This document shows, piece by piece, positions 1-17,379 of a DNA stretch of 17,379 nt. The stretch comes from a virus. The notes under the pieces are model-generated. The model was not told the DNA's origin and did not search any database. It worked only from the letters and a program-made list of their open reading frames with translations. The DNA lies in the IMG/VR virus record IMGVR_UViG_3300045988_147339, positions 1 to 17,379 of that record; one strand, 5' to 3'. Each line of letters opens with the position of its first letter. Positions within the stretch are counted from its first letter, which is position 1. A program made the translations under genes and the position numbers.

Positions 1-2811
1 AGCTAAATAACTATTAATATCTTGAACTTTAATAAATTCACATCTAACTGTAGAATCTGAATTAATATCATAAGCATCAATCTTATTAAGTATCCAGTAA
101 GAATCTTCAAAATAATAGAACTGTCTAAGTAAATCATACTTAACATCTAAATCATCTAATCTTACAAAGCAGGTAACTTTTTTAGTATTTACATCAAATT
201 GATCATTATAAAATTCACTTCAGAATCTACTATAAATAGTACTTCCGATATTATAAGTTATATCATCAATATAAATCTCTTGTGGTAATCCAAAATCTCA
301 AGAAGCAGTAACATTAGAGGACGAAACGGTATACCTTGTAAATTGAGGTAATACAGTTCTCTTTATAGCAATTTTATTCCCCCTAATATCTTTCTCACTT
401 TTAGTAGATATATAACACATTTCCTGATCATTTAATATGTTCATTTCTGTAAGATCATCTGTAATTCAATATGTTACTTCATTTCCTTTTACATCAGTTA
501 AAGGAACATTACCGTTAAAGAATACTAGGGATTGAGAGATATCCTCTAAAGATTCCTCATTACCATCAATTGAGAAAAATACATTTTTGGCAAATATATC
601 ATTACCTGCGATTTTATATCATTCTGTGGTTTTAGAGGGATCTATAAAATTAGCTCCGTATAACTCTTGATCTATAGTCTTAAGTTCAGTAGTGCTATTA
701 TTAAATAATGTATAGGTAATATTATCATTCATAAATGCAGGAACTACAAGGGAAGAAGAATTGTAAAAATTTCTAAAATATTTATTTCTCCATCTTGCAG
801 AAACTATATTTTCATATATATTATCACTATACAGTTCAGTTGTTTCAGAATTAAAATTATAACCAGTATTTAATCTTTGTTGACCATATAATATAGAATA
901 TTCCTTATTGTATTTTTTATAAAAATAAGTTTCTGGACCTTCAGAACTCATTCTATATCACTTCTTATCAAATAATATTGGATTTACATTGAAATCTTTA
1001 GAATAATCTATTCTCTTGCTCCAATCAGAGATTATATTCTTAAAGAAATTATTTCTAGTATATATTCTAATTGTTTTACTATCAATATCTTTTGTAAAAT
1101 ATAACCCAAATAGTTTTGCATAACTCAATAAGTAATCAGCAGGAGATTGTTCTGTTTTTAATAATAATTTTTTAGTTAATAATGCATTACTTTGAAGTAC
1201 CTCTGTAGAAGTAGTAATTTCAATGGGAGAAGTAAGATCTACTATAAGATCTCCTTTTGGAATAGCTTGGTAATCCTCTCCTCTTTCTATTACTTCACTT
1301 AATAATCCAGTAGGGCGAACACTATTTCCAGTAGATCATACAACATTAAGTTTAATTTTAATTTTATTAATTGGAATTTTAAAATTTGTAATATTAATAA
1401 CAAAATCATTAGTTAATGAAGAAGTATCATAAAATACATTATTTTGAAAATACCCAAAATGATTAACCCCATTAGCTATAGGATGTGAGTAGGTTCCTGA
1501 ATTTGTAAATCTATGTATTTCAGAAGTATAAATAGTATCATCTACTTCATTAGTAATTGTTAGCCAAACATCAGCGTATCCTCTATATGCTGAATAAAAA
1601 GGAGGAGCAGAGGAGCTAAAATACCTTCTAAATCCAAAAAAATATCTATCCCCAACATTTCCTGCAGTTCGATTAAACTTTAACTTAAAATAAAAAGTTG
1701 TAGAAAGGCTTTTTCTAAATCCAGCCTCACTTAAATCAATTATTCCAGAATCGTAAACAATATCAGGTGATGCAATGGATAATTTTAAAGGACTTGATGT
1801 AGATTCTCCTTTATTTATACCTACCTGATAATTATATTTACTATCTTCTACTAAAAAGCCAGATTCTGTTACATCTTCTTCGTCACTTACTAGATTAGAT
1901 AATAAAGGTAAAGCTACAAAGGATTTACTTCAATACGGATTATTTCAATTAAAAAATGAAGGATCAAATACTACATCATATCCAGAATTCTCTTTTCTAC
2001 AGATAGTTTCAATTAACTTACTCAATTTTAAAGCTGGCCTTTGCATATAACTTCTAAGATCTCTCATCTCCCATTCTGTATATGCTCTATTTAATTTAGC
2101 TAATCCATACCCATTATAAGGTGTATATGTAACTCCTGAATCTGTCTTACTAGTAGGAAATATACTATTTTCATTAGTATTTATTAAACAAGTTTCATTA
2201 TCAAAATCTTCATATAAACCATTATATGCTGGAATAAATGTCAAATAATCATATATTTGACTTCCTTCATTCGTTTTACTTCAGTCAAAACAAGTATTTA
2301 CAAAATCTTTGTTAATATAAAAATTAAGTTCAGTATCAGCAGGAAGTGTATTCCCATCTTCATCAGTTACAAAGTATTGTAAATCAGCAAGAGTCCTAAT
2401 AGTACCATCTTCTTTATATTTAAGTCCATAGAAGAAATCTCCTAATCCTCCATATAAAGTAATATTATAAGTAATAACAGCTTGTTTTATAGATATACTA
2501 TTTAATTGCATATATCCAGATTCAACTAAATAGTCATTATTATAGATTCCAAAATCAACTCGTTTTGAAGGATCAAAATATACTCCAGAGAAATTACCTT
2601 CTTTTATATGGAGAAATCTATCTAACTTATAAATCTCTCCAAAAATCTTATTATTGTTTTTGTCTCCTGGAATGCTTATAGTCTTACTGAATGAATTTTT
2701 TACTATTGTTGGATTCTGAAAATCTTCTACAGTATAAGTCATTGGTAATGATATGCCTTCAGAACAATGTACTTCTTTTCCTGCAATAAATAATTTAATA
2801 TTCTTTCTCAT
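1..2811 (-). CDS. Large tail / host-recognition-type virion protein. The 3' end runs off the left edge (at least 937 codons). Needs TGA=Trp.
   Basis: The ATG at 2809-2811 lies 2 nt after the TAA of the upstream gene. Track fragments 2281..2811, 1945..2244 and 619..951 share one frame. I read every in-frame triplet from 2811 to 1 and found no TAA or TAG, only nine TGAs (at 2281, 1945, 1930, 1336, 958, 619, 466, 298, 220) against about five TGGs. Function is inferred only from size, beta-rich N/T/S/Y composition and position. Confidence 0.8.
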
Positions 2812-2813
2812 AA

Positions 2814-4994
2814 TTATTTACGATAAGTATCTTGAGAAGTTTCTACATTAATTGTATAGTAGAACTTATTCTTACCTTGATTAGTATAAGTTTTATATTC
2901 ACAATTTGTATCTGTAATTAATACTGGAGTGATAGTATTATCTTTAAGATTATGCAAATATACTTTGGTACTCTCAATTAGATTAAACATCTTAGAAGCT
3001 TGAATATCATTTAAATAACCAGTATAAAGAACCCAGCTTGAAGTTATAGTATTCAAATACTTATTTCTTGCAAACTCTTGTGATGTATTTAATACCTTAC
3101 GAGTATATGTTTCAGATTTAATCTCATCATTCTTTTTAACATTACCCTCAACAAGTAATGAATCTCATCCACCTGCTGAATTAGTATAATACAACACATA
3201 ATCTTTACCTGTAGTATCTATATCATATCTAATCTGTCTATCACTAATATTTCCCCCTTCTACAAATCCTACTATTAAATAGCTTCCACAAGGCCATAGT
3301 TTATTACTTAAATCTTCGGTATATGTATATCCATTAATTCCAGAATTTAAACTAATATCCATAGCAGATTGTACTCCGTCTATATAAAAGAATCTATTAA
3401 TAACTCCAGTTCCAGTTGGTAGAATTCAACTTGATACTAAATACTGCCTTGGATCAACTAAACCAGTAATAGGATCACTTAACATAGTGCCTTTAGTTAG
3501 ATCTCTATCTTTATAACTCCAGTCATTGAAGAAAGTAATTGGTTTTTCATTTCCACTAGATGTTATCAAAGTAAATGGTTTCAAATATTCTGGAGATATT
3601 ATAGTTTTAGAAGTATTAAATATAATACCATTAGATAGATAATTCTCAGCTACATTATTTAATAGAAACTCTACTCTATCAGTTTCTGGATATTTATAAG
3701 CCTTGCCAGCATAAACCATATCTCCTGCATAATCTAAATGATATTCAATAAAATCTGAACTGATTATCTCATTCCAAACATAATCTTTCCAAATAGGAGA
3801 TATATCAGATTTAACAGATTGTGTAATATTAATAGATAAATTAATAATACTTGAACTATTCTTTATAACAGATACTCCAATAGTTGCTTGTCTAGAAGAT
3901 AAACCTGAATTTTCTGCAATGTTCAAACTAATAGTTGCTACACCTTGAGAATTCACAGAGAGCTTCTGACCACTAATCCAACCTACAGGAATACTAAATA
4001 CAACATCATCTAAGTTATTTGAGCCTGTACCAATTATATTTAATGTAGATGCAGTTCAACTTACTTCATAATTAGTATTAGGAATCACTAAAGATGTTGC
4101 AGCTTGTTTAATTGGAACTGTAGCTTCAAGAGTATAACCTCCAGAAGTTGTTGCAGTAACCATTGCACTAAACTCCAAATTATTAGTAGTTTTATTCTCT
4201 GGAACAGTTAATACAAAATAGTTATCAACAATATCCTTTTTAATATTACTAGCTTGAGGGCAGGTAACATTAAATGAGGTAATTGTTTCTTCTGCTTTAG
4301 TTGTACTTAAATGGAATTCTTCAGTAACAAAAGCAGATGCTCCATAAGTTCCAGATGAAGGAGTTACTACTAGCTTTAAATCTTCTGGAGTATTACTTTT
4401 TTCAATTTTAAAGCCGTAACTATAACTAATAAATTTATTAGTATCATAATAAGCTCCTAATTGGATAGTTGCAGTTAAATCAGTATTTCATTGAGTATTA
4501 GCTCTTACTGTAACTTTAAACTTAATAGAGCAAGAATCTCAATCCAGAACTTCCATATTAACTAAAGCTGTAGCATTAACAACTGCTGCATCTCATTTAA
4601 TAATATCTGATCTATTTAATATATACTCTACTGTATATTCTCCACCAGTATTTGGTACTTTAATGGTGCCATTAGCAGGATAATATCCAGGAGCTTTACT
4701 ATGTAAATTAATTGGTAAATCTTCCTCTAATAAAGCAGTAGTAATGCCTCTAGGATAAAAATGAAATACAGTAGAAGAATCAGTAGTTATTGTTGTAGGA
4801 GATAAAAATTGTATTGTACATCCAGAAGTACTAGGCTCTTGTATAGTTACCTCTAAAGGCCCTTCTTCAGTATAATAATCTCCCCAAGCCCAATAATCAT
4901 ATTCTCCAGTAATTCCCCATCCAGGATTATTCCATTTAACAGGAAAACTCCTTGATGCGTTATATACTCCTAATTTACTTGGTATAAATGCCAT
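2814..4994 (-). CDS. Ig-like/BACON-like repeat virion protein (about 726 codons if continuous). Interrupted by one in-frame TAG at 4089-4091.
   Basis: ATG at 4992-4994 and TAA at 2814-2816. Fragments 4593..4994, 3426..3956, 3165..3362 and 2814..3056 share one frame. In-frame TGAs are at 4593, 4539, 4488, 4056, 3426 and 3165 (for example LD-W-DSCSIKFKVTV and NTQ-W-NTD). Repeated segments end in ...RQATIGVSV...INITQ-type strands typical of Ig/BACON folds. No start codon follows the TAG until GTG at 3954, which argues for a single protein. See the finding on the 4078-4142 frame anomaly. Confidence 0.6.
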
Positions 4995-4996
4995 TT

Positions 4997-5476: not shown

Positions 5477-5518
5477 TTTTACTAAAATATATCATTCTCA
5501 TATTGAGTATCTAAACAC

Positions 5519-5543
5519 AAATAGGGAGATTTACTCCCTATTT
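5519..5543. other. Perfect 10-bp stem-loop (AAATAGGGAG / ATTTA / CTCCCTATTT).
   Basis: Read directly from the sequence. It lies between the chaperone-like gene and the 159-aa gene, immediately beside repeat copy 1. There is no clean U-tract on either strand, so a terminator role is unproven. Confidence 0.5.
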
Positions 5544-5545
5544 AA

Positions 5546-5595
5546 GTGTCTACTTTTTACTCACTTTTAGTAGTTAAAATAAATAAAAATAGACA
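5546..5595 (+). repeat. Copy 1 of a conserved 50-bp intergenic element.
   Basis: The sequence GTGTCTACTTTTTACTCACTTTTAGTAGTTAAAATAAATAAAAATAGACA aligns with 11085-11134 in the same orientation and with 12881-12930 in reverse complement. The shared blocks are TGTC(T/A)A, TTTTTACTCA and ATAAAAATAGACA. Confidence 0.8.
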
Positions 5596-5597
5596 TT

Positions 5598-6400
5598 TTA
5601 GTGTTTAGCTTTTCAAAGATCTATTTGTCTTTTTTCTTCTTTTCCTTTATCAAGTAAGTAGCAAATAATATTCAAGAACTCTTGAATTTGCATATCGTAT
5701 ACTTGATGCCAGTTTAACCTTGTTACTTCACTAACTCTGTCTATTCAACAAATCCAGTTCCATTTTTGACTAAATTCAGAGTTTGTCTCGCTTGAACTAT
5801 CCTCTTCCGTAATTGATGTTTCTTTACTGGATCTTTCTCCTTTTTCATCAATTTCTTCATCTCCCGCATTGAAGAGATTAGGGTAGCTATGGTTAAGCTC
5901 TCTAATAATTTGCAAAAAAAAACCATAATGTCTGTAACAATAGTAATTGGAATTTTATCATATAATTCATCTGCCAATTCCATTACATCATAACCCTCAT
6001 TATACTTCTTTCCTTTAGGAATTAAAAAGCATAAGAATATATACTTCTGATTCTTTTCATAATCTTTATAAAAGTTCTGAAAATCAATATACTGAGCAGC
6101 AGTCATATTTCTGAGATTTAATTGAACTGTATATTTATTACCATCAATATCATACTCAGTTTCTGGAACTTTGGATTTATATTTATTTACAATAAAATGA
6201 ATCTTACTAAGTTCTGCAGATAATTGATCTACGGTCATATTTAATAAAGCATCCCTTGCTTCATCTGGGTTATCTGTAAGTAATGAGTAGATCTCGATAC
6301 TCCTATCTAAATCTGTCATTTTTACATCACTCATAATAAATGTATTTAAAGCTTGGAATTTCTTTAAAGATACTTCTTCCCATTTAGTTGCTACATTCAT
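5598..6400 (-). CDS. Possible -1 frameshift isoform of the chaperone-like gene (G/GT-like).
   Basis: The -1 frame is free of TAA and TAG for 118 codons (5954 down to 5601; TAA at 5598-5600). It extends 47 codons past the zero-frame TAG. A zero-frame-aligned T TTT TTT heptamer (a T9 run, plus-strand A9 at 5914-5922) and an AAAAAG (5840-5845) both lie inside the open window. Confidence 0.4.
5741..6400 (-). CDS. Tail-assembly-chaperone-like protein (zero-frame product, 219 aa). Function tentative.
   Basis: Intact ORF running ATG to TAG, starting 1 nt after the terL stop. Its layout (W..V.L..F, ..IDGNKYTVQLNL.NMTAAQYIDFQ.., ..FLIPKGKKY..) is reminiscent of phage TAC families, recalled from memory only. 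A long open -1 frame overlaps its 3' part. Confidence 0.75.
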   Translation of the reverse strand: MNVATKWEEVSLKKFQALNTFIMSDVKMTDLDRSIEIYSLLTDNPDEARDALLNMTVDQLSAELSKIHFIVNKYKSKVPETEYDIDGNKYTVQLNLRNMTAAQYIDFQNFYKDYEKNQKYIFLCFLIPKGKKYNEGYDVMELADELYDKIPITIVTDIMVFFCKLLESLTIATLISSMREMKKLMKKEKDPVKKHQLRKRIVQARQTLNLVKNGTGFVE

Positions 6401-6401
6401 A

Positions 6402-7649
6402 CTATTTAATTTTAATATTATAATGTCCTTTGTTTGTATTTAATGAGTCATAGGCTAACATTAATGAAATTACTGTATCATCATTAAATCCAGATGGAGC
6501 ATTATAACTAACATTTCCAGTTTTTGGATTATATGAAGCTTCATATAGTCTTAACTCATTTAAAAGTTTATCATCTTTTAATAATCCTATCTTTTCATTC
6601 TCCAAAGCAGCTTGAAGCTTATTAACTATATCTGCCTTACTCTTATTAGTAGTTAAGAATCGTATAATCCTGATTTTCGGATTCTTCTGAACTAACATAT
6701 CATAGAAGACACTACCAATTGAGTTTTGTTCAACTTGTACAATCTTTATAAATCCTTGATACTCAGTTAGTATATTTGTTAATAAATCAACTTGCTCTGT
6801 TGGAGTTTTATCGTTAAAATACTTTATAAAGACCATTTGCCCAGATTCATTTAAAGCAGTAACACAAGTATAGTCTTTACCACTCCCAGTAGCCCAGTCT
6901 ATTCCTATATAAAGACTCTGATAATCTGGTTTTTTCTCAATTATGCAATTAGCTATATTATTAAATAAACATCCATCATCATCTGCAAATTCCCCTAAAT
7001 ATTCGGTTCTAAATTTATTTTTTGAGGTTGTAAGTCGATACATCTCTAACTTCTCTTTATCTAAAAGCATAGATGTATCTTCTAAAGCTCAATCAAATGA
7101 TTTATAGAACTTGTCATATTTCGGATCTAACCCTTTAGTAAAGCAGTCATAAAAGAAACCCTCTCGGAACCTTGGAGTACTAATAATTAATATTGGAGCA
7201 GACCACACATCAGTAGTAGGTTTAATAATTTCAAATACTTCATCTTTTAAGTAAGCAGCCTCATCTAATACAAGTAATCCACTTACAGAGAATCCTCGTA
7301 ACGAATCCATTTGTTCTCCAGATCTAAATAATATAGAACTGCCATTATTAAACTCTAATTCAAGCAAAGTTTCATTCTTACGTTTAAGAATATCTGCTTC
7401 AGCTATAGCATTAACTATTTCTTTAAACACTTTTCTTGATTGCCCAAGAGTAGGTTCTACTATACAATTGACTGTTTTTGGATAGTTAATTGCAAATCGT
7501 AATAATTCATTTTCAGCTAAGAAAGATTTACCTACTTGTCGTTTAGCTTTAATTGTAAATATCCTTCCAGATCTATAAGCATCTGCCATAGCTATATGAA
7601 CCTTATATTGGTACATAAATGGCCTATATCCTTTATATATCCTTGTCAT
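6402..7649 (-). CDS. terL: Terminase large subunit (415 aa with TGA=Trp).
   Basis: Track fragments 7089..7649 and 6402..7070 are in one frame and are joined by TGA at 7089-7091 (..KSFD-W-ALEDTSMLL..). Motifs seen are Walker A AKRQVGKS, Walker B LLVLDEAAY and the ISTP coupling motif. The C-terminal RNase-H-like nuclease shows IGIDWATGSGKDY and FNDDTVISL. Confidence 0.9.
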
Positions 7650-7854
7650 TTATAATAGGATCTCCAAATTTAAATTGGCATTCATTATTTTGAATATTAA
7701 CTTGAATTTCTGGTTGATTTAATCCAAACATAGAATTTATTGTTTTAATAACCTCAGTAGCAGATCTTACATCATTTTTACTAATAGCAATATCCAATAA
7801 TGTTTCCAATCTTGTTAATTGTATATGTCTTAAATTCTTTATAAGATTATCATT
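7633..7854 (-). CDS. Open frame resembling the C-terminal part of a small terminase. It has no ATG; TTG at 7807-7809 is the first usual start.
   Basis: 74 codons are free of TAA and TAG: NDNLIKNLRHIQLTRLETLLDIAISKNDVRSATEVIKTINSMFGLNQPEIQV...DKDI*. It overlaps the terL start by 17 nt. It lies in the -1 frame relative to the HTH ORF, which ends at 7839. Confidence 0.4.
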   Translation of the reverse strand, partial: NDNLIKNLRHIQLTRLETLLDIAISKNDVRSATEVIKTINSMFGLNQPEIQVNIQNNECQFKFGDPIINDKDI

Positions 7855-8069
7855 TTATAAGCTTCCCTAATATATTTAGCAGCAGTAGTTTGCCCAACTC
7901 CATATTTAGTTTGAAGTTCCTCACTTACTTTATTTCTGGACCACCCTTTATTAAATAATCTTGCTGCATAAAGATATTTAGTTTTTTGTTCGTCTATTTG
8001 ATCCTCTTTTACTTCTTCCTTTTTCGGTCTCCCTATTTTCTTCGGCAGTTCCTGATTCTTTACTTTCAT
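7839..8069 (-). CDS. Small HTH DNA-binding protein, probably the N-terminal part or the whole of the small terminase.
   Basis: 76-aa ORF running ATG to TAA. It has a basic GRPKK N-terminus followed by an HTH-like segment (WSRNKVSEELQTKYGVGQTTAAKYIREA). It sits just upstream of terL. Confidence 0.6.
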   Translation of the reverse strand: MKVKNQELPKKIGRPKKEEVKEDQIDEQKTKYLYAARLFNKGWSRNKVSEELQTKYGVGQTTAAKYIREAYKMIIL

Positions 8070-8402: not shown

Positions 8403-8732
8403 TTAATTAATAAGTTTGTATATAACATCTATCAGCTTAGTAGATGCATCTTTTAATAATATCATAATATCTTTAATAATTGGAGTCATAAATGCTAATA
8501 GTGCAATATATCCAACCATTAAAATTGAAAATTGACTTGTAATAAGAATATATATTAATCCAATTCACCAAGTCATACATAAACTGCAATCTAAAGGTTT
8601 TAGTCTTCAATCTTCTTTATAAGGTATACCTTTAAATAGTCTTTTTCAAATACTGTGTTTAAAACTATCCAAAGCCCCAGATAAATCAATTATAAAGACT
8701 ATTATTACTGCTATTATAAATAATTCTAACAT
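8403..8732 (-). CDS. Three-pass membrane protein with a CxxC motif (109 aa). Absent from the ORF track.
   Basis: I translated it by hand: MLELFIIAVIIVFIIDLSGALDSFKHSI-W-KRLFKGIPYKED-W-RLKPLDCSLCMTW-W-IGLIYILITSQFSILMVGYIALLAFMTPIIKDIMILLKDASTKLIDVIYKLIN*. There are three in-frame TGAs. The length of 330 nt is divisible by 3. The ATG overlaps the TAG of the upstream gene (ATGTTAG). Confidence 0.7.
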
Positions 8733-8971
8733 AATCTCTCTCTTATTTGTTTAATAAATCTTTGAATTGTAGTATGACTAATTCCTAATATTCTTCCCAC
8801 TTCTCTATAACTGTGATATTCAGCATATAATATGATTACTGTCTTATCTGCCTTATTAAGCTCAAGTCATTTTGGATATATACTTAATAGTCTATCATCC
8901 ATATTTGTAAACATACTATAGTCTATTTCATACTCAGTAAGTAAATCGTCAATATTAATCTTCCGTTTCAT
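8726..8971 (-). CDS. Sigma-70 region-4-like HTH protein (81 aa), the sigma4 half of a split sigma factor.
   Basis: Hand translation: MKRKINIDDLLTEYEIDYSMFTNMDDRLLSIYPK-W-LELNKADKTVIILYAEYHSYREVGRILGISHTTIQRFIKQIRERLC*. The pattern L..L....r.v..L....g.sy.EIa..LGis..TV......r..L is the classic region 4.2 pattern. There is one in-frame TGA upstream of the HTH. Not in the ORF track. Confidence 0.65.
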
Positions 8972-9263
8972 TTAATCAATCCTCCAATTCGTCATTTTGT
9001 TGTTCAAGTGGTTCTTTAACAATCTCATAATATTTCTTATAGGTATAGTAATATCTACTTGTTTTACTAAACCAATAATTCTTAAATAATCTTGTAATCC
9101 AAAATTTCAATTCATTTTTGCTATCAAGCTGATTTAATTTTGGATTTGAATACTCTAGTATTTCTACAAAAATCATTTGAACACAGTCATCATCTGCACC
9201 AAATTTTTGCTTAAGTTCCATAATAAATGGATAGTACTTTTCTACAATTTCGTTATTACTCAT
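8955..9263 (-). CDS. Sigma-70 region-2-like protein, the sigma2 half of a split sigma factor. It ends at TGA 8976 under the standard code, or at TAA 8955 with TGA=Trp.
   Basis: The segments ...GADDDCVQMIFVEILEY...ELKFWITRLFKNYWFSKTSRYY match the ECF-type region 2 pattern (DLVQE.F..., ..WL.RIA.N...D..R). A TAA in the sigma4 frame sits immediately before the sigma4 ATG, so the two halves cannot be fused by a simple frameshift. Confidence 0.6.
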
Positions 9264-9750
9264 ATGTTCACATATATCCTCCTGCTGTTTTTCGCTGCCC
9301 TTTAAGAACCTTTACAATATTTCTAGATTGTATATTTAGTTCTCTCTCAGCATCTATTGCTGAATCCCATCTTTTAATAACTATTCCATTTAGTAATTGC
9401 AGTATTGGTTTCTTATGACTATATCCAGCTCGCAGATTATGAGTTCCATAATTATTATTATAATTATAAGTACACCATTCTAAATTACTTACATTATTAT
9501 TTGATTTATTTTCATCCTTATGATTTATACAAGGATAGTTATTCGGATTAGATATAAAAGTTTCAGCTACTAATCTATGTATATAACACTTCTTTTTCAA
9601 ATTTTTATTATATAATGTTACTGTAAAGTACCCATTAGTTTTTACTTGAGGTTTTAACCTCTTTGGAACTGATGCTCTTAAACTTCATATTGAGCCATCA
9701 GTTCCAATTTGGTAGTTTTCAAAATTAAGTATTCTTTTATAGGCTATCAT
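9256..9750 (-). CDS. HNH homing endonuclease (164 aa with TGA=Trp).
   Basis: ATG at 9748-9750 and TAA at 9256-9258. Hand translation: MIAYKRILNFENYQIGTDGSI-W-SLRASVPKRLKPQVKTNGYFTVTLYNKNLKKKCYIHRLVAETFISNPNNYPCINHKDENKSNNNVSNLEWCT...TAGGYM-W-TYE*. TGA 9685 falls on the conserved Trp of the dG.vWS motif. HRLVA..F and NHKD.NK.NN...NLEW form the HNH_3 core. Confidence 0.85.
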
Positions 9751-10413: not shown

Positions 10414-10424
10414 ATTCTATATTA

Positions 10425-10651: not shown

Positions 10652-10683
10652 CAAATATACAACAAAAAAATCAAATCTCCAAA
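10652..10683 (-). promoter_or_regulatory. Bacteroidota-type promoter candidate driving the leftward operon.
   Basis: On the minus strand the sequence reads TTTG (10683-10680), then 20 nt, then TATATTTG (10659-10652). This matches the -33 TTTG / -7 TAnnTTTG consensus. The surrounding sequence TGTTGTATATTTGTAATATCAA is near-identical to the two rightward modules. Confidence 0.55.
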
Positions 10684-10723
10684 TTTTTTGGCAACTTTTT
10701 CTCATAATTTTTTATTAAAATTA

Positions 10724-10755
10724 TTTGGAAATTTAAAAATAATGTTATATCTTTG
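10724..10755 (+). promoter_or_regulatory. Bacteroidota-type promoter candidate (rightward, copy 1 of the tandem module).
   Basis: TTTG at 10724-10727, then 20 nt, then TATCTTTG at 10748-10755. It is part of a roughly 53-bp module (10718-10770) that repeats 83 bp downstream. Confidence 0.55.
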
Positions 10756-10806
10756 TATTATCAAAATAAGAAAAATGAAAATTTATTAAAAATAATTGCT
10801 AAATTA

Positions 10807-10838
10807 TTTGGATTTTAAATAAAAATGTTGTATATTTG
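10807..10838 (+). promoter_or_regulatory. Bacteroidota-type promoter candidate (rightward, copy 2).
   Basis: TTTG at 10807-10810, then 20 nt, then TATATTTG at 10831-10838. It lies about 40 nt upstream of the ATG at 10880. Confidence 0.55.
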
Positions 10839-10879
10839 TACTATCAAAATAGATTATTATAATTAAAATTTTAAAGACT

Positions 10880-11035
10880 ATGAAAAATTCGATTAAAAAC
10901 AATGGAACAATTATTATTGAAGATAATACAATTAAGAGCACTATGGAGAATTCAATTCCTTGTTCTGATGAACAATTTGCTAACTTATTAGCTAACTCTC
11001 CTACAATTGCAGCTTATTTTAGTAAAAATAAGTAA
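10880..11035 (+). CDS. 51-aa hypothetical early protein.
   Basis: ATG to TAA, no in-frame TGA: MKNSIKNNGTIIIEDNTIKSTMENSIPCSDEQFANLLANSPTIAAYFSKNK. It is framed by the tandem promoters upstream and a terminator hairpin 15 nt downstream. Confidence 0.5.
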   Translation: MKNSIKNNGTIIIEDNTIKSTMENSIPCSDEQFANLLANSPTIAAYFSKNK

Positions 11036-11049
11036 TTCTACTACTTCTA

Positions 11050-11075
11050 GGCAGGTGAAAATCCTGCCACTTTTT
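11050..11075 (+). terminator. Rho-independent terminator candidate.
   Basis: GGCAGG (11050-11055), loop TGAAAAT, CCTGCC (11063-11068), then ACTTTTT. Confidence 0.6.
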
Positions 11076-11084
11076 AACATTAAG

Positions 11085-11134: not shown

Positions 11135-11159
11135 ATTAATAACCAAAATTATTACAACT

Positions 11160-12878
11160 ATGAAAACATATTTAAATGAAATTATTAATGAGTTGCCAAC
11201 TAACTGTTTATTTGATAAAGGAAAAGTTGGATGTGGAGGAACTTCAATGGCAATTGAATGCAATAAGCCTTATGTTATTTGTGTTCCATTTACTAGCTTA
11301 GTTGAAAATAAACTTCAACAATATCCAAATGAAAGACGTACTGAGAAGATATTTGGAGTTTATGCTGGTGTTACTATTAAAGAGATTAAAGATTATGTAG
11401 ATAGTGTTAAATGCCCTAAAATCATTGTTACCTATGATTCTCTTTATAAAGTTATTTCTGCAATTAATCCTAAAGAGTTTAGCATTTTAATTGATGAATA
11501 TCATATTCTCTTTAATCAGTATAGCTTTAGAAGCTCTGCTATTCAATCAGTGCTTAAATATTATAAATTATTTGGTAATTTTACATTTATGACCGCAACA
11601 CCTTTAGAGGAAGAGTTTGTATTAGATGAATTAAAAGATTTAGAATTAGTAAAGCAGGAATGGGATGATGTTATAGATGTAAAAGTGCAAACTGTTAAAT
11701 GTGATAATGTAGAAGCTTCTACTATTAAACTTATAAATGGATTTTTAAACGGACAGGTTGAAGGTAACGCCTACATATTCGTTAATTCAGTAGACTTTAT
11801 AAAGAACCTTATTAAGAAAGCCAAATTAACATCTAATAATACCAGAGTTATATATTCCAAAAACAATAAAACTAAACTGTCAATTCCTAATTCAACAGTC
11901 TTAGATGAACCTAAGAAAATAAACTTATTAACTTCAACTGTATTTGAAGGTTCAGATATTTATGATGAAAATGGAAGGATAATAATTATATCTGATCCAA
12001 GTAAAGCTAATACATTACTTGATATATCAACTTCTATACAGCAGATTGCTGGTAGAATTAGAAATAGTAAATATATTAATTGGATAACTCACATTTATTC
12101 TACAACAAGATATGCTGATATATCTTATGAAGAATTTAAAAAGCTTAATATCCAGAATATTGAAGAAACTAAAATTGCTGTAGAAGCATACAATAAACTT
12201 CCAGAGATAGCTAAAAAGAAACTTAGAGAATTTACTTCTGATGCATACATTAAATTAAATTGGGATGATGTATTTGAATTTGACCCTAATATGGCTAAAA
12301 TTGATTTATTTAATTTTAAAGTATCTAGGGGACTGTATTCTGCTAGAGCTAATCTTTCTAAGGAATATATTAATAAAGGATTTAATAAAGTGGTAGAACA
12401 ATATGATAATTCTATAAAAATAGATCTAAATACTAAAACAAAAGCATTTAAAGATATAATTAAAGAAGTAAGAGAGGAATATGAAACCTTATATAAGGTA
12501 AACACCCCAAAATTAGATGATGCTCTTATTAAATACCCTTGGTTAATGGATGCTATTACTAAACTTGGATTCAATAAAATGGCCACTCTAAAATACTGTA
12601 TTACTAAAATAAAAGATGAACTTATTAAAACTTCAGATAAATCTGTAGATAATAAAGTAGCAAATAAACTTAATAAAGATATAACTTTAGGTATGTGGTA
12701 TTCTAATACTGATATTAAAAAGATACTACAAAAAGCTTATGATTTAGTTAATAAAACTAATGCTAAAGCTACTGATATTACAAAATATTATGAAGTTAAG
12801 GTAACTAAAAAATCAGTGAATGGAAACAGATCTTATGGATATACTATTATAGGTAAAAAGTATGTCTTTAAAAATTAG
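11160..12878 (+). CDS. SF2 (DExH-type) helicase-like protein with a long C-terminal extension. Probable replication or early function.
   Basis: Uninterrupted 572-aa ORF under the standard code, ending in TAG. Motifs seen are a P-loop-like GKVGCGGTS, motif II LIDEYH, motif III MTATP and motif VI QQIAGRIRN. All five Trp codons are TGG. Confidence 0.8.
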   Translation: MKTYLNEIINELPTNCLFDKGKVGCGGTSMAIECNKPYVICVPFTSLVENKLQQYPNERRTEKIFGVYAGVTIKEIKDYVDSVKCPKIIVTYDSLYKVISAINPKEFSILIDEYHILFNQYSFRSSAIQSVLKYYKLFGNFTFMTATPLEEEFVLDELKDLELVKQEWDDVIDVKVQTVKCDNVEASTIKLINGFLNGQVEGNAYIFVNSVDFIKNLIKKAKLTSNNTRVIYSKNNKTKLSIPNSTVLDEPKKINLLTSTVFEGSDIYDENGRIIIISDPSKANTLLDISTSIQQIAGRIRNSKYINWITHIYSTTRYADISYEEFKKLNIQNIEETKIAVEAYNKLPEIAKKKLREFTSDAYIKLNWDDVFEFDPNMAKIDLFNFKVSRGLYSARANLSKEYINKGFNKVVEQYDNSIKIDLNTKTKAFKDIIKEVREEYETLYKVNTPKLDDALIKYPWLMDAITKLGFNKMATLKYCITKIKDELIKTSDKSVDNKVANKLNKDITLGMWYSNTDIKKILQKAYDLVNKTNAKATDITKYYEVKVTKKSVNGNRSYGYTIIGKKYVFKN

Positions 12879-12880
12879 TA

Positions 12881-12930
12881 TGTCTATTTTTATTTTTATC
12901 TATATACATTAGTTGAGTAAAAAATAGACA
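12881..12930 (-). repeat. Copy 3 of the 50-bp element, inverted; the right arm of the pair.
   Basis: Plus-strand sequence TGTCTATTTTTATTTTTATCTATATACATTAGTTGAGTAAAAAATAGACA. Its reverse complement aligns with copies 1 and 2. It starts 3 nt after the helicase TAG. Confidence 0.8.
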
Positions 12931-12950
12931 TTTATTAAAATATTTTAATT

Positions 12951-13112
12951 ATGGAAAATGATATTAAAGAAACAATTAAACAAACAGAAGAGTATATTAA
13001 AGAGTTAGATAGATGAATGCTCGAATGTAAAGAGGCTACTAAAAGATTTGGTGATATTATAGACAAAGTATTAAAAAATAAAGATTATATGTTTATTTCT
13101 AAATTTGATTAA
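12951..13112 (+). CDS. Hypothetical small protein (53 aa if TGA 13014 is read as Trp).
   Basis: Translation: MENDIKETIKQTEEYIKELDR-W-MLECKEATKRFGDIIDKVLKNKDYMFISKFD*. Under the standard code it splits into 21-aa and 31-aa pieces, with an ATG directly after the TGA. Confidence 0.4.
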
Positions 13113-13114
13113 TT

Positions 13115-13237
13115 ATGGATGATCATTTATTTAAAAAGCTTGAAGAACTAGAATACAGAATAGTTCAACTAGAAAACCAGAATAGAGGTTTAGTTTGGGA
13201 AGAAGTAGAAGAAATGCCAAAACCAGAAATTACTAAT
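13115..13237 (+). CDS. Hypothetical small coiled-coil-like protein (40 aa).
   Basis: ATG lies 2 nt after the previous TAA. Translation: MDDHLFKKLEELEYRIVQLENQNRGLVWERSRRNAKTRNY*. The only support is that the frame is open and the genes are tightly packed. Confidence 0.3.
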
Positions 13238-13404
13238 GCAACATATACTGATTAATATGAAATACCAAACCTATAAAGTATGTATAAATGGAGTGTATTA
13301 TGTATATGTAATACCAGAAAATAGTAAGTTTTTAGTAGACTTACAAACAGGAGATTTAATACCTAAAGAAGATGATAAATTATTTGAAATAATGGAATAA
13401 ATGA

Positions 13405-13432
13405 AAATAGGAGGGTTTATACCCTCCTATTT
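13405..13432. terminator. Bidirectional terminator candidate between convergent transcription units.
   Basis: Perfect 11-bp stem AAATAGGAGGG / loop TTTATA / CCCTCCTATTT. T-rich sequence follows on both strands. The stem resembles the one at 5519-5543. Confidence 0.6.
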
Positions 13433-13653
13433 CTGTTTAAATCTTTGATAATTACTAACCGATGAATGAATAGCTTTATGACAAACTGAACACATCAGTT
13501 ACAAGTTTGGCAGTGGTAGTTATCCCGCAATAATATTTGCTCTCTAATGGCCTTAAAATCCTTTGATCTTATATATCTTTGGTACTTTAAATATTCTTCA
13601 CTTCTTACTTTCTTCTTTGTCTTATGAAGCAGTTTACTTGATTTGGAGTCCAT
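13417..13653 (-). pseudogene. Probable HNH-endonuclease remnant or small zinc-ribbon ORF.
   Basis: ATG at 13651-13653. The N-terminal part ...FKAIREQILLRDNYHCQTCN is HNH-like and is followed by TGA at 13495. The typical HNH C-terminal motif (M)CSVCHKAIH occurs in a different frame (13493 down to TAG 13427-13429). The His-Asn catalytic core between the two parts is missing. With TGA=Trp the original frame runs on to TAA at 13417, inside the terminator hairpin. Confidence 0.35.
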
Positions 13654-13655
13654 AA

Positions 13656-14108
13656 TTATATAATTGTAAATTTCTGTCTTCTCTGCAAACCCTCTTTATT
13701 CTTCAGTCCTAAATGAATTCAACTAGCTATTCCATTTCTAGGTTTCTCATAAATAAGTTGATCAAAATCATACTTTTCAATAGCTTCAGTAATCCAAACC
13801 TGAAATTCTTTCATTTGGCCGTTACTTGGAATTATATCTGCTGCATATCCTGTTAGATGGGCAGATGTCAAAGATCCTCCTACAGCTTTATTAAGCTCAT
13901 TACATCTATAACCTGAATTCACACTTATTGCTGGATTCCCCAACCGATTAACATCACAATACTCTGCCCAATCACTTCTTAATGGGTCTAAAAGTTTCTC
14001 GACTAACTCTATAAGGTGTTCAGTAATCTCTTTATTTGGAGTATTATCTATCTTCTTAATAGAAGCTGTATCAGATCTTGTTAATTCACTAATAGTAAAA
14101 TATTTCAT
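13656..14108 (-). CDS. Endolysin, zinc peptidase M15 (VanY / L-Ala-D-Glu peptidase-like), 150 aa with TGA=Trp.
   Basis: Motifs ..SGYRCNELNKAVGGSLTSAHLTGYAADI.. (SxHxxGxAxD) and ..FDQLIYEKPRNGIAS-W-IHLG... TGA 13719 is the Trp of the conserved WxH motif that carries the last zinc ligand. The standard-code ORF would end before that His. The true stop is TAA at 13656-13658. Confidence 0.85.
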
Positions 14109-14269
14109 TATTTAATAATATCTTTAAGCATAGTATAACGGTAAAATAAATGACATCCTGCACCAAGTGCTATGAGTGCTAATGTAATACAAAATGGAAT
14201 TACTTTTACCATTAAAAATACTAAGATTATAATTACTATTGCTATTAAATATTTCATCCAATATTTCAT
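14108..14269 (-). CDS. 53-aa two-TM protein (holin/antiholin-like). Absent from the ORF track.
   Basis: Hand translation: MKYWMKYLIAIVIIILVFLMVKVIPFCITLALIALGAGCHLFYRYTMLKDIIK*. It has two hydrophobic segments. Its TAA shares one nt with the endolysin ATG (TAATG). Confidence 0.6.
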   Translation of the reverse strand: MKYWMKYLIAIVIIILVFLMVKVIPFCITLALIALGAGCHLFYRYTMLKDIIK

Positions 14270-14272
14270 AAC

Positions 14273-14926
14273 TTATTTACTTAAAATTATACTTACTTTA
14301 ATTCCTGCATCTCTTAGTTTTACTCAAGTATCAACTGGCATCTCATTATCACAATAAGATAATCCTAAAATTCCAATATCTCTATCTTCTGATTTTAAAT
14401 AGAATATTGCTATCTTATTAACCTCATTAGATTTAAATGCATAATACATTCTTCTATCTAATTCCTTTATATCTTCAACATCTCCAAATCATCCTCCTTT
14501 TTTAGATGTTTCCAATATAAATAAATAATCAGATAATAGGAAGTCTTTATAGTGACTTGAAACTGGAGCAACTCCAGGTTCTGTTTCTTCACTATTCATA
14601 ATTCCATAAGTGAATGGTAATCCTCCTAATCCTGAAGTGCCATTATGATACTCAATAACTCAAGCTCTATCTGCATTCGTATCATTTAAAAGGTCTTTAA
14701 GGATATATCTAACCTTAAGATCCGCTTCTTGTCGTATTACTTGATTAGTATTATGAACTGTTTCTATATAACTTACAACTTTATCATATATTATTCCTGG
14801 ATTAGTACTTATAATTATTACATAAGAAATAAATATAAATCCAAATCCACCTTTAATTATTTTCCACAGTCCATATTTATCTACTCATTCTAATACCTTT
14901 CCAAACCAGTTTAATTTATTTTCCAT
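14273..14926 (-). CDS. 217-aa membrane protein with one N-proximal TM and a large C-terminal domain. Its architecture resembles the T4 t-type (class III) holin. Absent from the ORF track.
   Basis: I verified the hand translation line by line. The length of 654 nt is divisible by 3. There are four in-frame TGAs (14885, 14660, 14489, 14324). Sequence: MENKLNWFGKVLE-W-VDKYGLWKIIKGGFGFIFISYVIIIS...ADRA-W-VIEYHNG...KKGG-W-FGD...PVDT-W-VKLRDAGIKVSIILSK*. It lies directly upstream of the small TM protein and the endolysin. The link to T4 gp t rests on size and topology only. Confidence 0.7.
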
Positions 14927-15510
14927 TACATATTATACTTAAAGGTATATCCTTTAGTTTGTTTTTGTCTTCCACTTAAAACGGAAGATATTAAAGAAGA
15001 AGTTATATTTAACTCTCTTGCTGCTGATCTTATACTTTTATAAGATTTTATAAATCTTCCATCTAAAGTATATTGACTAATAGCTTTAGTTCCATAGTTT
15101 TGATTTTTCTTGCGTATTAATTCCTTAGTTTCTTCAGAATGATGCTTTCCATAAAATGGATTTTTATTTCCTGTTCTAGTTTTAGCAAATTCAGAAATAA
15201 TAACTTTAGTTTCATTAGAAACTATCGGATGATTACTTGTGTCAGTTCTATTATAACCAAATCTTAAATCTGTAGTATTATAATAGCTAAAGAAGTATTT
15301 TTCAAGATATTTCATTTCCGATTCACTATTTACATAATAAATAGTGTGTTTAATATTGTTTCAACCGTACTTTTTAATTGGTCTGTAAACAAATTGATCT
15401 TTATATCCTTCTCCACCTCTTCATCTACTATTTACTGATTGAGTAGTCAATCCAACATATCTTTTACCATTTGGAAAAGTATGAATATAAACTACATACT
15501 GTCTTGACAT
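14926..15510 (-). CDS. GIY-YIG homing endonuclease (194 aa with TGA=Trp).
   Basis: N-terminus recovered through TGA 15421 and TGA 15361: MSRQYVVYIHTFPNGKRYVGLTTQSVNSR-W-RGGEGYKDQFVYRPIKKYG-W-NNIKHTIYYV... The NUMOD3-like NPFYGKHHSEETKELIRK and a C-terminal IENR1-like HTH are present. The gene overlaps its upstream neighbour by 19 nt. Confidence 0.85.
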
Positions 15511-15917
15511 AAGCCTAATGTGTTGTCAACTTGGAAATCAGCTCTAACAAACACTCCGCAGGTAATATCTTTGAACTTTTGATAGAATGGAGTATAAATT
15601 AAAGGATAAGCTATTTCAACTTCTGGATATAGGTTATTAAAACGATTAATTATATTTTGCAGTGCGAGCATACCTGCTGACTGTTCCTCCAATTGGTTGT
15701 TATCAGTCTCATCCCATCTTGATACGAAGTATAGGTTTAAAGAGTAAGTAATAGTATCTTCATCTACACTAAAAGTATTAGGTGTTATATAGAACACATT
15801 ATACTCAATAGTTGGTAAGCTATTTAACTCATAAATATCTTTACTTCCTACAAAATTGATGTTTGGCTCTTCTAATGCACAAGCTTTTAAATTGCTAATT
15901 ATCTCATAGTAGGTCAT
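15492..15917 (-). CDS. Hypothetical virion-module protein (141 aa).
   Basis: Intact ORF running ATG to TAG, packed 2 nt after the upstream gene. I recognised no motif. Confidence 0.7.
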   Translation of the reverse strand: MTYYEIISNLKACALEEPNINFVGSKDIYELNSLPTIEYNVFYITPNTFSVDEDTITYSLNLYFVSRWDETDNNQLEEQSAGMLALQNIINRFNNLYPEVEIAYPLIYTPFYQKFKDITCGVFVRADFQVDNTLGLCQDSM

Positions 15918-15919
15918 AA

Positions 15920-16609
15920 TTACTTACTCTTTTTATTATTACTTGAAGGGAAATCATAAGCTCTTTGAAGAGGTCCCTCTCCAGGTTTAATGCTCCATCC
16001 TTTACCTCTTGCTCCACCAAGCCAAATATTGCAAGATGAGCTAGAGTAAAGATTGGGAAACATATCCTTTAATGGCTTATATGTATAAAGCTCAGGGAAT
16101 TCGTTATAATATGTAATTATAAAGTCCTGTAAACGAGTCTTAAAGAAATCCGCCTTATCTCTATAATACTTCTTAATTTGATTTACTTGACTTGCTTCAG
16201 CAGCAATATCTTTCTCATCATCAGTTCTCATAACTCCAAAATTACCAAGCTTATAAGATATAGGAATTACTATCTCGCTAAGTACTTGATAAAGTAAATA
16301 AGGCTGAACATAATAGTCTAATAGCTCTTTATATCTGTAGTTATCAGAATCATCAATAGAATCACTTGGAAGTGGCTCAGGAGGTTCTATTGGATGAACT
16401 GGAGTATGAGGATCAATCCAATTAATACATTTCTTTTGTAATGCTTCCAATAGCTTAGTACCAATAGTTGACTGAAGCTCTACATCTTGAGCACTTGTGA
16501 TGGCTGCTTGTAAATATTTACCCGATATATTGTTATCTAATGTAGAATTTGACTTTATATAGTCTTCTGAAATAAGCAGTACATTTCTATAGTTAAGTTG
16601 TTCCATCAT
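15920..16609 (-). CDS. Hypothetical virion protein, possibly a head-tail connector/adaptor type (229 aa).
   Basis: Intact ORF running ATG to TAA. The N-terminal pattern ..EDYIKSNSTLDNNISGKYLQAAITSAQDVELQSTIGTKLLEAL.. resembles gp6-like connector proteins, recalled from memory only. All three Trp codons are TGG. Confidence 0.7.
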   Translation of the reverse strand: MMEQLNYRNVLLISEDYIKSNSTLDNNISGKYLQAAITSAQDVELQSTIGTKLLEALQKKCINWIDPHTPVHPIEPPEPLPSDSIDDSDNYRYKELLDYYVQPYLLYQVLSEIVIPISYKLGNFGVMRTDDEKDIAAEASQVNQIKKYYRDKADFFKTRLQDFIITYYNEFPELYTYKPLKDMFPNLYSSSSCNIWLGGARGKGWSIKPGEGPLQRAYDFPSSNNKKSK

Positions 16610-17201
16610 AAATAAATTTATTGTTTTTATAAGGTCTATTTTCTTTTAAAGCTAAATATAATCCAGAACGTTCTCCATTAACTGATTTAACAGCTTCTTT
16701 CATTGAATTATATCTTGCAATAAAATTCCCATTCATATCAAATCTTAATATAGGCTTAACTCTAGTAATTCGTCCTTTGGAAGCATTTCCAATTTTAATA
16801 AGTGTTTCCAAAGTATAGATTCCTTTCTTTCCTTTATTCCAGGGTGTTTTACCTTTTTTAGAATTTGACATTTTTGTTCTACTCTCATTAGAAAAAGAAT
16901 ACCCGTATGTACCTTCTCCTCCTGATGTTATATTGTAACCATTTTCAGGAGTATTTGTTTTATATTTATGTATCAATATCCTTTCTAATGTCTTAGCACA
17001 AGCTTCTGGTAAATTATCTTTAATTATGATATGTTCAAATCCATCTCAGCTATATTTTTGTATCGCTTTATAAAAGTAAGCTTGAGTAGAGTATCCATAT
17101 CCATTTTTTCACCTAGCTTGCACACTTTGTCCAGTAATGCCAAAATATAGCTTATTGTTATACTTATTTATATGGCAATAAACAGTATAATTATTCAACA
17201 T
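16593..17201 (-). CDS. GIY-YIG homing endonuclease (202 aa with TGA=Trp).
   Basis: ATG at 17199-17201. Hand translation: MLNNYTVYCHINKYNNKLYFGITGQSVQAR-W-KNGYGYSTQAYFYKAIQKYS-W-DGFEHIIIKDNLPEACAKTLERILIHKYKTNTPENGYNITSGGEG... TGAs are at 17109 and 17046. I checked all in-frame triplets from 16977 to 17201 and found no TAA or TAG. The gene overlaps both neighbours (17 nt and 11 nt). Confidence 0.85.
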
Positions 17202-17379
17202 TTTGTTTGCTATCTTCTTGTCCATTTGGAGTTAAGCTAAAAGGAGTTATAGTTATTGAACCTTTCATTCCAAATATCTTATCAAATGTATCTACTATTT
17301 CGACCTGAATTGGTCTAACTACTGTACGATTATAAAGTTTAAAAGCTTCATTAAATTCTTGTTCGTTGAATCCACTTGA
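17191..17379 (-). CDS. C-terminal 62 codons of a gene that begins beyond the right edge (possibly portal or another morphogenesis protein).
   Basis: Open from the window edge to TAA at 17191-17193: SSGFNEQEFNEAFKLYNRTVVRPIQVEIVDTFDKIFGMKGSITITPFSLTPNGQEDSKQNVE*. The resemblance to portal C-termini is weak and from memory. Confidence 0.5.
   Translation of the reverse strand, partial: SSGFNEQEFNEAFKLYNRTVVRPIQVEIVDTFDKIFGMKGSITITPFSLTPNGQEDSKQNVE

Follow-up and report, generated by a model that had tools for sequence, protein, structure and literature searches.

Reassignment of TGA from stop to tryptophan has been described in several groups of gut phages, among them the Beta, Delta and Zeta crAss-like phages (Yutin 2021, PMC7886860) and the Jade, Agate and Sapphire clades (Borges 2021, 10.1101/2021.08.26.457843); TGA recoding in gut phages is also attributed to Ivanova 2014, as cited by PMC11210395 and PMC7886860. 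UHGV contains 46 viral operational taxonomic units that use table 4 (Cook et al., PMC11210395). The suppressor tRNA Sup-TCA was present in 35% of code-4 genomes in one survey (Borges, 10.1101/2021.08.26.457843) and in 15% in another (Cook 2024, PMC11210395), leaving 65-85% of code-4 phages with no detectable suppressor (10.1101/2021.08.26.457843; PMC11210395). Here we analyse 17,379 nt of viral DNA, positions 1-17,379 of the IMG/VR virus record IMGVR_UViG_3300045988_147339 (hereafter the window, by which we mean this whole stretch). The window is 17.4 kb out of the approximately 30-31 kb genome of a tailed phage, one that metagenomes of the human gut commonly contain. In this phage TGA is read as tryptophan, the use of TGA differs sharply from gene to gene, and complete genomes carry no decoder gene of their own.

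The phage resembles the crAss-like, Jade, Agate and Sapphire phages in having in-frame TGA codons at tryptophan positions, in the concentration of recoding in structural and lysis genes, in keeping a replication gene in the standard code, in its occurrence in the human gut and in its Bacteroidota-type signals; many members of those groups likewise have no detectable Sup-TCA tRNA. It differs from them in a five-fold smaller genome (30 kb against 100-190 kb), in the lack of genes for tRNAs, RNA polymerase and DNA polymerase, in a TerL unrelated to that of crAss-like phages, and in a major capsid gene that is nearly free of TGA. In size, in its single recoded block of structural and lysis genes, and in having one or few standard-code genes, it is like the Garnet, Amethyst (~34 kb) and Topaz (~22 kb) clades of Borges et al., of which a Garnet prophage sits in Prevotella (Borges et al., 10.1101/2021.08.26.457843). 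A further likeness to the small recoded clades is that a TAG-recoded prophage (locus L127, positions 5902-21740, code 15) encodes a 579-amino-acid homologue, 48% identical, of the helicase of the phage studied here. As described, however, Garnet, Amethyst and Topaz are recoded at TAG (to glutamine) and are often temperate with an integrase, whereas the present phage is recoded at TGA (to tryptophan), has no integrase and has never been found integrated. Recoding of this kind is thus already known, and the lineage is present in public catalogues, mostly in mistranslated form. Useful features of this lineage are a compact, tRNA-free genome, a sharp contrast in TGA use between genes and demonstrable recombination with a recoded crAss-like phage; the lack of a suppressor tRNA of its own in a complete genome makes it slightly unusual.

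Under the standard code the window contains 58 open reading frames (ORFs) of at least 40 amino acids, many of which are collinear fragments. When TAA and TAG are taken as the only stops, these fragments merge into long minus-strand ORFs, the two largest of which grow to 726 and at least 937 amino acids. A preliminary description of this DNA, made from the sequence by inspection, had reported short standard-code ORFs that share a frame and are separated by TGA, had put the in-frame TGA codons at more than 30, and had held that no gene needs TGA as its terminator. All three statements are borne out: with TGA as sense we counted 35 in-frame TGA and 43 TGG codons over 25 genes, and the individual positions it had listed are correct (7089 in TerL, 9685 in the HNH gene, 15361/15421 and 17046/17109 in the two genes labelled GIY-YIG, and 13719 in the M15 endolysin). 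Every gene in the window stops at TAA or TAG, as do those of the complete relative c111621 (26 TAA and 5 TAG); TGA is never a terminator, and table 4 creates no gene fusions. Greedy non-overlapping ORFs cover 0.67 of the window under table 11, 0.72 under table 15 and 0.94 under tables 4 and 25, so that a comparison of translation tables, which the preliminary description had proposed, finds tables 11 and 4 far from equal; complete relatives behave in the same way across tables.

A reading without recoding, in which the TGAs would be true stops of pseudogenes, errors of assembly, codons for selenocysteine or places where programmed readthrough occurs locally, has the fragmented ORFs of table 11 in its favour and nothing else. 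The same TGAs lie in frame in dozens of independent assemblies, and the essential TerL, endolysin and tail-protein genes would all be broken if they were stops; moreover, 35 sites in 17 kb are far too many for selenocysteine. The base following TGA (+4) is unbiased, which indicates general reassignment, not local readthrough, and context-dependent readthrough was rejected on this ground. This reading is refuted by the ORF coverage together with the codon alignments, and we give it practically no credence.

The identity of the inserted amino acid comes from the alignment of around 100 related loci to the window, in which the codon opposite each window tryptophan codon was counted; this comparison of TGA and TGG does not depend on any translation table. 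Window TGA codons face TGA 1235 times and TGG 336 times. Codons for Tyr, Phe or Leu lie opposite them a few times, AGT (Ser) four times and TAA twice, and GGN never; conversely, window TGG codons face TGA 192 times. Since TGA and TGG interchange at the same codons, they are synonymous, and TGA in this phage specifies tryptophan. Translation of TGA as glycine (code 25) in an Absconditabacteria or Gracilibacteria host is excluded by the same interchange. Such phages do occur in gut and oral samples (Borges, 10.1101/2021.08.26.457843), have low G+C and infect walled hosts with an alternative code; as here, TGA is sense in them and no decoder has to be encoded by the phage. In those phages, however, TGA stands for glycine in about 90% of genes, whereas here it stands for tryptophan and is unevenly spread. 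The 336 pairings of TGA with TGG against none with GGN, an invariant tryptophan at endolysin column 130, aromatic residues at the HNH columns and tryptophan in standard-code relatives of TerL all contradict glycine, and a code-25 phage, refuted by the codon alignment, is scarcely conceivable.

A tryptophan codon that is always TGA lies in the endolysin gene (13656..14108, minus strand), which encodes a 150-amino-acid Peptidase_M15_3 protein (Pfam 3.1e-14; phrog_894 2.3e-30). The TGA at 13719 specifies Trp130 of the SWIH motif (AS-W-IHLG; the peptide across the TGA codon reads ...NGIASWIHLGLK), two residues before the zinc ligand His132. Codon 130 is TGA in 42 of 42 aligned loci; Trp47 (13968), by comparison, is TGG in 69 of 69 relatives and Trp105 (13794) is TGG in 51 of 55. 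Trp130 is invariant in 22 homologues with 49-65% identity, as are H84, D91 and H132. Gene calls made with table 11 end the protein at 127-129 amino acids, without His132, and many copies in databases are truncated in this way; judging from the position of this residue the fixed TGA would inactivate the enzyme if TGA were a stop. In TerL (6402..7649, minus strand; 415 amino acids; Terminase_6N/6C, phrog_2) the one TGA, at 7089-7091, encodes Trp187 between the ATPase and nuclease domains and fuses the ORFs 7089-7649 and 6402-7070. This codon is TGA in 62 loci and TGG in six, and the residue is tryptophan in L028 and L029, the nearest standard-code relatives (42% identical). I-HmuI (PDB 1u3e) has Tyr and Phe at the two TGA columns of the HNH gene. 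The PDB sequences aligned to TerL, to the M15 peptidase and to the GIY-YIG-type protein stop short of the TGA columns. The earlier claim that the TGAs fall on residues that are tryptophan in well-known families stands for endolysin position 130, by the M15 homologues, and for TerL position 187, by the standard-code relatives; for the HNH gene, I-HmuI has other aromatic residues at these columns.

We calculated the fraction of tryptophan codons that are TGA after pooling the distinct sequences within each gene family. The helicase family uses TGA at one of 130 tryptophan codons (28 distinct sequences; 129 TGG), and a 301-amino-acid protein encoded in the major-capsid position at one of 147. TGA is also infrequent in genes for a 174-amino-acid protein (2/92), the prohead protease (4/54), a 219-amino-acid protein at 5741-6400 (5/49) and a 175-amino-acid protein (4/36), and reaches fractions of 0.15 in the portal and 0.16 in the DUF6712 gene. 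The remaining families with tryptophan codons, which include TerL, the tail proteins, fibres, tape measure, membrane proteins, endolysin, sigma-like pair and homing endonucleases, have fractions of 0.25-0.95. About two thirds of gene families contain TGA, and some 45% of the tryptophan codons in the window are TGA. Counted by site, TGA is found in at least one genome at one of five helicase tryptophan sites against 58 of 73 sites elsewhere (p = 0.011). In the Mycoplasma phages MAV1 and P1, examined as controls of similar G+C, TGA makes up 77% and 95% of tryptophan codons and is present in every gene with tryptophan codons, replication genes and integrase included. In the present phage, TGA appears to be tolerated in low-copy late proteins, whereas it is kept out of the helicase and of the head proteins made in high copy, namely the major capsid, the 174-amino-acid protein, the prohead protease and, for the most part, the portal. 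The behaviour of the genes for the 301- and 174-amino-acid proteins, which lie at 14219-15689 of c111621 and outside the window, is unlike what published work leads one to expect, namely that recoding is heaviest in structural genes.

The helicase gene (11160..12878) is the only large gene on the plus strand; its product has 572 amino acids, and the gene has five TGG codons, no TGA and a TAG stop. The AlphaFold model (predicted local distance difference test score 83) retrieves DEAD-box proteins (DbpA, UAP56), Mfd and RecQ with Foldseek, and according to this model the protein is a superfamily 2 helicase of the DEAD/DExH type. A role of this standard-code protein as code-switch machinery was considered and rejected, as the modelled fold is that of an ordinary superfamily 2 helicase.

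No candidate decoder was found in the genome. ARAGORN detected no tRNA in the 153 loci scanned or in nine complete genomes reconstructed out of overlapping loci, and with introns allowed or thresholds relaxed it returned only low-scoring calls within coding regions; a recurrent 'tRNA-SeC(tca)' call was rejected as it lies inside the DUF6712 gene and has poor structure. Nothing resembling a tRNA was matched when a complete genome was compared with Rfam at E <= 10. A regular expression for a UCA anticodon arm, namely a YUUCARN loop closed by a 5-bp stem with perfect pairing, has no occurrence in the window. Pfam revealed no release factor and no aminoacyl-tRNA synthetase (TrpRS) among the scanned proteins, which cover most genome ORFs. 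The preliminary description had noted that suppressor tRNA and release factor are lacking from the window; this holds, and extends to the complete 30-31 kb relatives. As tRNA, release factor and TrpRS are all missing from complete genomes, the decoder of UGA would have to come from elsewhere.

One place from which it might come is another phage in the same cell. Two long contigs, one of 148.6 kb from IMG/VR and one of 193 kb from ENA, seem to hold the small phage, and their flanks belong to a family of TGA-recoded phages of 164-171 kb whose 772-amino-acid TerL matches crAss-like, Bacteroides, Flavobacterium, Cellulophaga and Azobacteroides phages. Genomes of this partner family include IMGVR_UViG_3300029720_000001 and 3300045988_159576. 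The junction in these contigs lies in a tail-fibre gene, at a shared 55-bp word, which identifies them as assembly joins and not as prophages; their interpretation as host-borne prophages was rejected, the flanks being crAss-like phage. That the two genomes became joined in independent assemblies does indicate that both are abundant in the same samples. The 1542-amino-acid fibre of the large phage and the 1293-amino-acid Phage_tail_C fibre of a small-phage contig (L131) have 755 amino acids in common at 98% identity, and the shared DNA is 2265 nt long, 99% identical and contains nine in-frame TGA codons. Between the small-phage family and the 164-171 kb phages the segment is 89-99% identical (L131:2605-4869, L113:15316-17574, L065:6726-8990 and L128:4651-4869), and in other small-phage contigs it is diverged (90%) or partial. 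This recent exchange of receptor-binding DNA between two TGA-recoded phages argues for a common host and for co-infection. The small phage is not itself a member of Crassvirales: its TerL is a 415-amino-acid Terminase_6-type protein, its genome measures 30-31 kb, the fibre segment alone is shared, and crAss-like phages are not among the best 25 phage TerL matches shown.

On these observations the suppressor tRNA of a co-infecting TGA-recoded crAss-like phage, or of a resident prophage, could decode UGA for a small phage that has no decoder gene. The 755-residue fibre segment, 98% identical to the 164-171 kb phages, implies infection of the same cell, assemblies of 148 kb and 193 kb, at least two of them independent, join the two genomes, and some opal-recoded Zeta crAss-like phages carry a Sup-TCA tRNA (PMC12386605; PMC7886860). 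Against this, no tRNA was found in the approximately 40 kb of the partner genome (164-171 kb in all) around its TerL and fibres, and in published tables some opal-recoded Zeta phages have a detectable Sup-TCA tRNA and others do not (PMC12386605; PMC7886860), four of the five members of one such clade being without (PMC12386605). The small phage, furthermore, has a complete set of structural, packaging and lysis genes, and most samples assemble it alone. A decoder supplied by a partner in this way is, in our judgement, unlikely. Taken more broadly, the idea that the phage is a 'code hitchhiker' on the decoder of another phage, or that it uses a tRNA-free switch, remains doubtful, although the data are compatible with a switch such as a phage protein that disables release factor 2 or retunes host tRNA-Trp. 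If such hitchhiking were true, an altered genetic code would be a resource shared among co-infecting phages.

Several signals bear on the host. The motif TTTG-N20-TAnnTTTG, which we take to be the -33/-7 promoter architecture of Bacteroides, occurs three times in the window, against 0.91 occurrences expected in its whole length. The three sites have identical spacing, lie within 190 bp, are confined to the sole divergent intergenic region (10652..10838) and are kept in four complete relatives. One (10652-10683, minus strand) is directed towards the long leftward operon and two (10724-10755 and 10807-10838, plus strand) towards the helicase module; sigma-70-type promoter sites, by comparison, are found at the level of chance (25 against 25.6 expected). 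No gene start is preceded by a Shine-Dalgarno motif. A homologue of the helicase, 46% identical, is encoded in the chromosome of Hymenobacter sp. J193. The L127 prophage, which has 13 TAG codons in its TerL gene, and whose integrase and helicase homologue have none, adjoins a Phage_int_SAM_5 integrase, glutamine synthetase and TerC on a 132-kb standard-code contig of 38-40% G+C. Opal-recoded Zeta crAss-like phages have predicted hosts that are mainly Bacteroidales, with a few Firmicutes (PMC12386605).

The principal alternative to a change of code during infection is a host in which code 4 is native, that is, a Mollicute-like or undescribed walled lineage that reads UGA as tryptophan, with no code switch at all. 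The phage does resemble Mycoplasma and Spiroplasma phages in reading TGA as tryptophan, in its low G+C (27% in the window, 27-30% in the lineage) and in neither needing nor having a suppressor tRNA; complete genomes without tRNA, release factor or TrpRS, and the spread of TGA over around two thirds of the families of genes, some of them close to where the long operon begins, fit this view, and many table-4 phages simply mirror their Mycoplasma or Spiroplasma hosts (Cook et al., PMC11210395). A native code, however, does not account for the contrast between genes: the helicase (1/130) and capsid (1/147) avoid TGA, which supplies 77-95% of tryptophan codons in MAV1 and P1 and just ~45% in the window despite a G+C of 27%. 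Nor does it account for an M15 peptidoglycan peptidase with an intact and invariant active site, for Bacteroidota-type promoters without Shine-Dalgarno motifs, or for fibre DNA in common with crAss-like phages; in MAV1 and P1, Shine-Dalgarno-like motifs precede most genes, and no peptidoglycan hydrolase is annotated in either record. Lastly, human stool, in which this phage is abundant, is not known to harbour a common code-4 bacterium. We therefore regard a native code-4 host as quite improbable.

A walled member of the Bacteroidota that uses the standard code is the most likely host. The preliminary description had argued that a peptidoglycan peptidase would be of no use against Mollicutes and that the promoters are Bacteroidota-like; the endolysin, the promoters, the lack of Shine-Dalgarno motifs, the TGA-poor genes, the exchange with crAss-like phages and the helicase relative in a TAG-recoded prophage of a standard-code contig all indirectly favour this kind of host. 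A search for prophage matches, which it had suggested for host prediction, returned none: the TerL profile was run against 185,579 species genomes (one per GTDB species), and matched two archaeal metagenome-assembled genomes only, at 26% identity.

Taken together, we hold it probable, with room for doubt, that this is a TGA-as-tryptophan phage of a walled, standard-code Bacteroidota host, for which the decoder is provided in trans and in which the TGA codons act as a gate. UGA is read as tryptophan in most genes of a single long operon and never as a stop; in such a scheme its decoder would be supplied by the host itself, by an element resident in it or by another phage that infects the same cell. 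The packaging, tail-assembly and lysis proteins would be finished only where UGA is read as tryptophan; elsewhere the endolysin, for example, would be cut at codon 130, without its third zinc ligand. This corresponds to the 'late-gene gate' that Borges et al. put forward (10.1101/2021.08.26.457843). Whereas the reading of TGA as tryptophan, its distribution over the genes and the lack of a decoder gene are observed, host phylum, host code, gating and a source in trans are what these observations suggest, and several points weigh against them. A genome without a decoder is exactly what a native code-4 host predicts, and a G+C of 27-30% also fits Mollicute-like hosts. The scan of species genomes found no prophage, and iPHoP places some opal-recoded Zeta crAss-like phages in Holdemanella/Faecalibacillus, that is, in Firmicutes (PMC12386605). 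With respect to gating, the third gene of the long operon and the sigma-like pair already carry TGA, so that the decoder must be present early, which weakens the idea; and the avoidance of TGA in the capsid gene could reflect a cost of decoding in highly expressed genes instead of timing.

The 572-amino-acid helicase of the phage was found identical in 99 blocks of the sequence collection, on contigs that are all of 50 kb or less, and IMG/VR contains dozens of relatives of 26-32 kb; the phage occurs on contigs above 50 kb only where it is fused to another phage. The nine reconstructed genomes span 30.1-32.0 kb; the ends of one of them (c093071) overlap by 55 bp, as is typical when an assembly is circular, and c111621 was reconstructed from L075 and L042. 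No integrase and no DNA polymerase was found in the complete genomes. Megablast matched no close cultured or GenBank phage; all TerL matches to phages were below 60% identity and the best 25 shown below 30%, and among these the best cultured ones were archaeal and Thermus phages.

In complete genomes one strand carries all genes except one module, the opposite strand encoding only the helicase and three small ORFs. In the direction of transcription the long operon begins with small ORFs, a pair of ORFs similar to extracytoplasmic function (ECF) sigma factors, a membrane protein and a small helix-turn-helix protein, and continues with TerL, the large tail proteins (726 and 1119 amino acids) and a 777-amino-acid tape-measure-like protein. 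There follow an XkdF-type protease, the 301-amino-acid protein that occupies the major-capsid position and matches no family, and the 174-amino-acid protein; then fibres that resemble BspA-type leucine-rich repeats weakly and below threshold, together with a Phage_tail_C fibre; and lastly the portal, DUF6712, a transmembrane protein and the M15 endolysin.

The window begins within a tail or baseplate gene (1..2811, minus strand), of which it holds the first 937 codons before the gene runs off the end; the full-length protein of 1119 amino acids is seen in c111621. Eight of its nine TGA codons (2281, 1930, 1336, 958, 619, 466, 298 and 220, but not the ninth, 1945) are TGG in some relatives. The adjoining gene (2814..4994, minus strand) encodes a structural protein of 726 amino acids with no family match and has six TGA codons (4593, 4539, 4488, 4056, 3426 and 3165); gene calls in Logan loci and in L002, a locus from ENA, give this protein intact and must evidently have treated TGA as sense. 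Upstream of TerL, in a minus-strand gene (7633-8069), L001 and c111621 have 16 bp (AAGATTATTGCAGATA) that are missing from the window near position 7852; their absence shifts the frame of a 150-amino-acid helix-turn-helix protein into fragments of 76 and ~73 amino acids, and represents either a defective variant or an assembly error. A multi-pass membrane protein of 109 amino acids (8403..8732, minus strand; TGA at 8646, 8607 and 8565; no family match) is a candidate holin-like protein by its hydrophobic segments. The ECF-sigma-like pair (8955-9263, 102 amino acids, and 8726-8971, 81 amino acids; minus strand) has one TGA in each ORF (8976 and 8867). These ORFs lie in different frames with a 17-nt overlap and give weak matches to TIGR02937 at positions 4-104 and 117-161, corresponding to its N-terminal (region 2) and C-terminal (region 4) halves; Sigma70_r4_2 and HTH_50 are matched in relatives, and the pair (8726-9263) may represent a sigma factor of the phage that has been split or has suffered a frameshift.

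On the plus strand, the stretch between the tandem promoters and the helicase start (10880-11068) contains an ORF of 51 amino acids and a strong terminator-like hairpin (11050-11068; GGCAGG-N7-CCTGCC followed by a T run), which suggests attenuation or antitermination control over the helicase gene. Three small plus-strand ORFs, at 12951-13112 (with a TGA at 13014-13016), 13115-13255 and 13257-13400, lie 3' of the helicase gene, are supported by gene calls in L001 and are followed by a bidirectional terminator hairpin (13404-13433). Beyond the endolysin, which it adjoins, a 217-amino-acid protein with an N-terminal transmembrane segment (14273..14926, minus strand; TGA at 14885, 14660, 14489 and 14324) has a weak match to phrog_30125 only, and judged by its position may take part in lysis. 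Towards the end of the window are the DUF6712 gene (15920..16609, minus strand; 229 amino acids; Pfam 8.2e-14), which here has three TGG and no TGA, and 62 codons of the portal C-terminus (17191..17379, minus strand), which match the portal C-terminus of L001 and run off the window; relatives of this gene match Phage_portal.

Homing endonuclease genes are scattered over the genome and differ in presence between relatives, some of which have extra ones. An I-HmuI-like HNH/NUMOD gene (9256..9750, minus strand; phrog_59 1.5e-39; HNH_3) has TGA codons at 9685 (GTDGSI-W-S) and 9268; its NUMOD4 match is under the Pfam cut-off, and some relatives are without the gene. The gene at 14926..15510 (minus strand; TGA at 15421, SR-W, and 15361, KYG-W) matches NUMOD1, NUMOD3 and I-HmuI_NUMOD-like and gives no GIY-YIG match in Pfam, so that its GIY-YIG label comes from the motifs noted in the preliminary description; being found in only seven aligned loci, it behaves as a mobile element. 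A further GIY-YIG/NUMOD3 gene (16593..17225, minus strand; TGA at 17109, AR-W, and 17046, KYS-W) falls below the Pfam cut-off for GIY-YIG. Of the family assignments first made by eye, those of terminase (Terminase_6N/6C), HNH, M15 and NUMOD are thus supported by profiles, and GIY-YIG is either below the cut-off or unmatched. The ORF at 13417-13653 resembles a truncated HNH remnant. As the genes at 9256-9750, 13417-13653, 14926-15510 and 16593-17225 all contain TGA, they circulate among TGA-recoded genomes.

Pipelines that apply table 11 cut the proteins of this phage short, which degrades annotation and host-range work on a common gut phage. With a genome of 30 kb, very little non-coding DNA, no tRNA genes, one standard-code helicase, a sharp contrast in TGA use between genes and a TGA-recoded partner in DNA exchange, the phage also offers a compact test case for the means by which TGA is decoded in code-4 phages that lack a suppressor tRNA.

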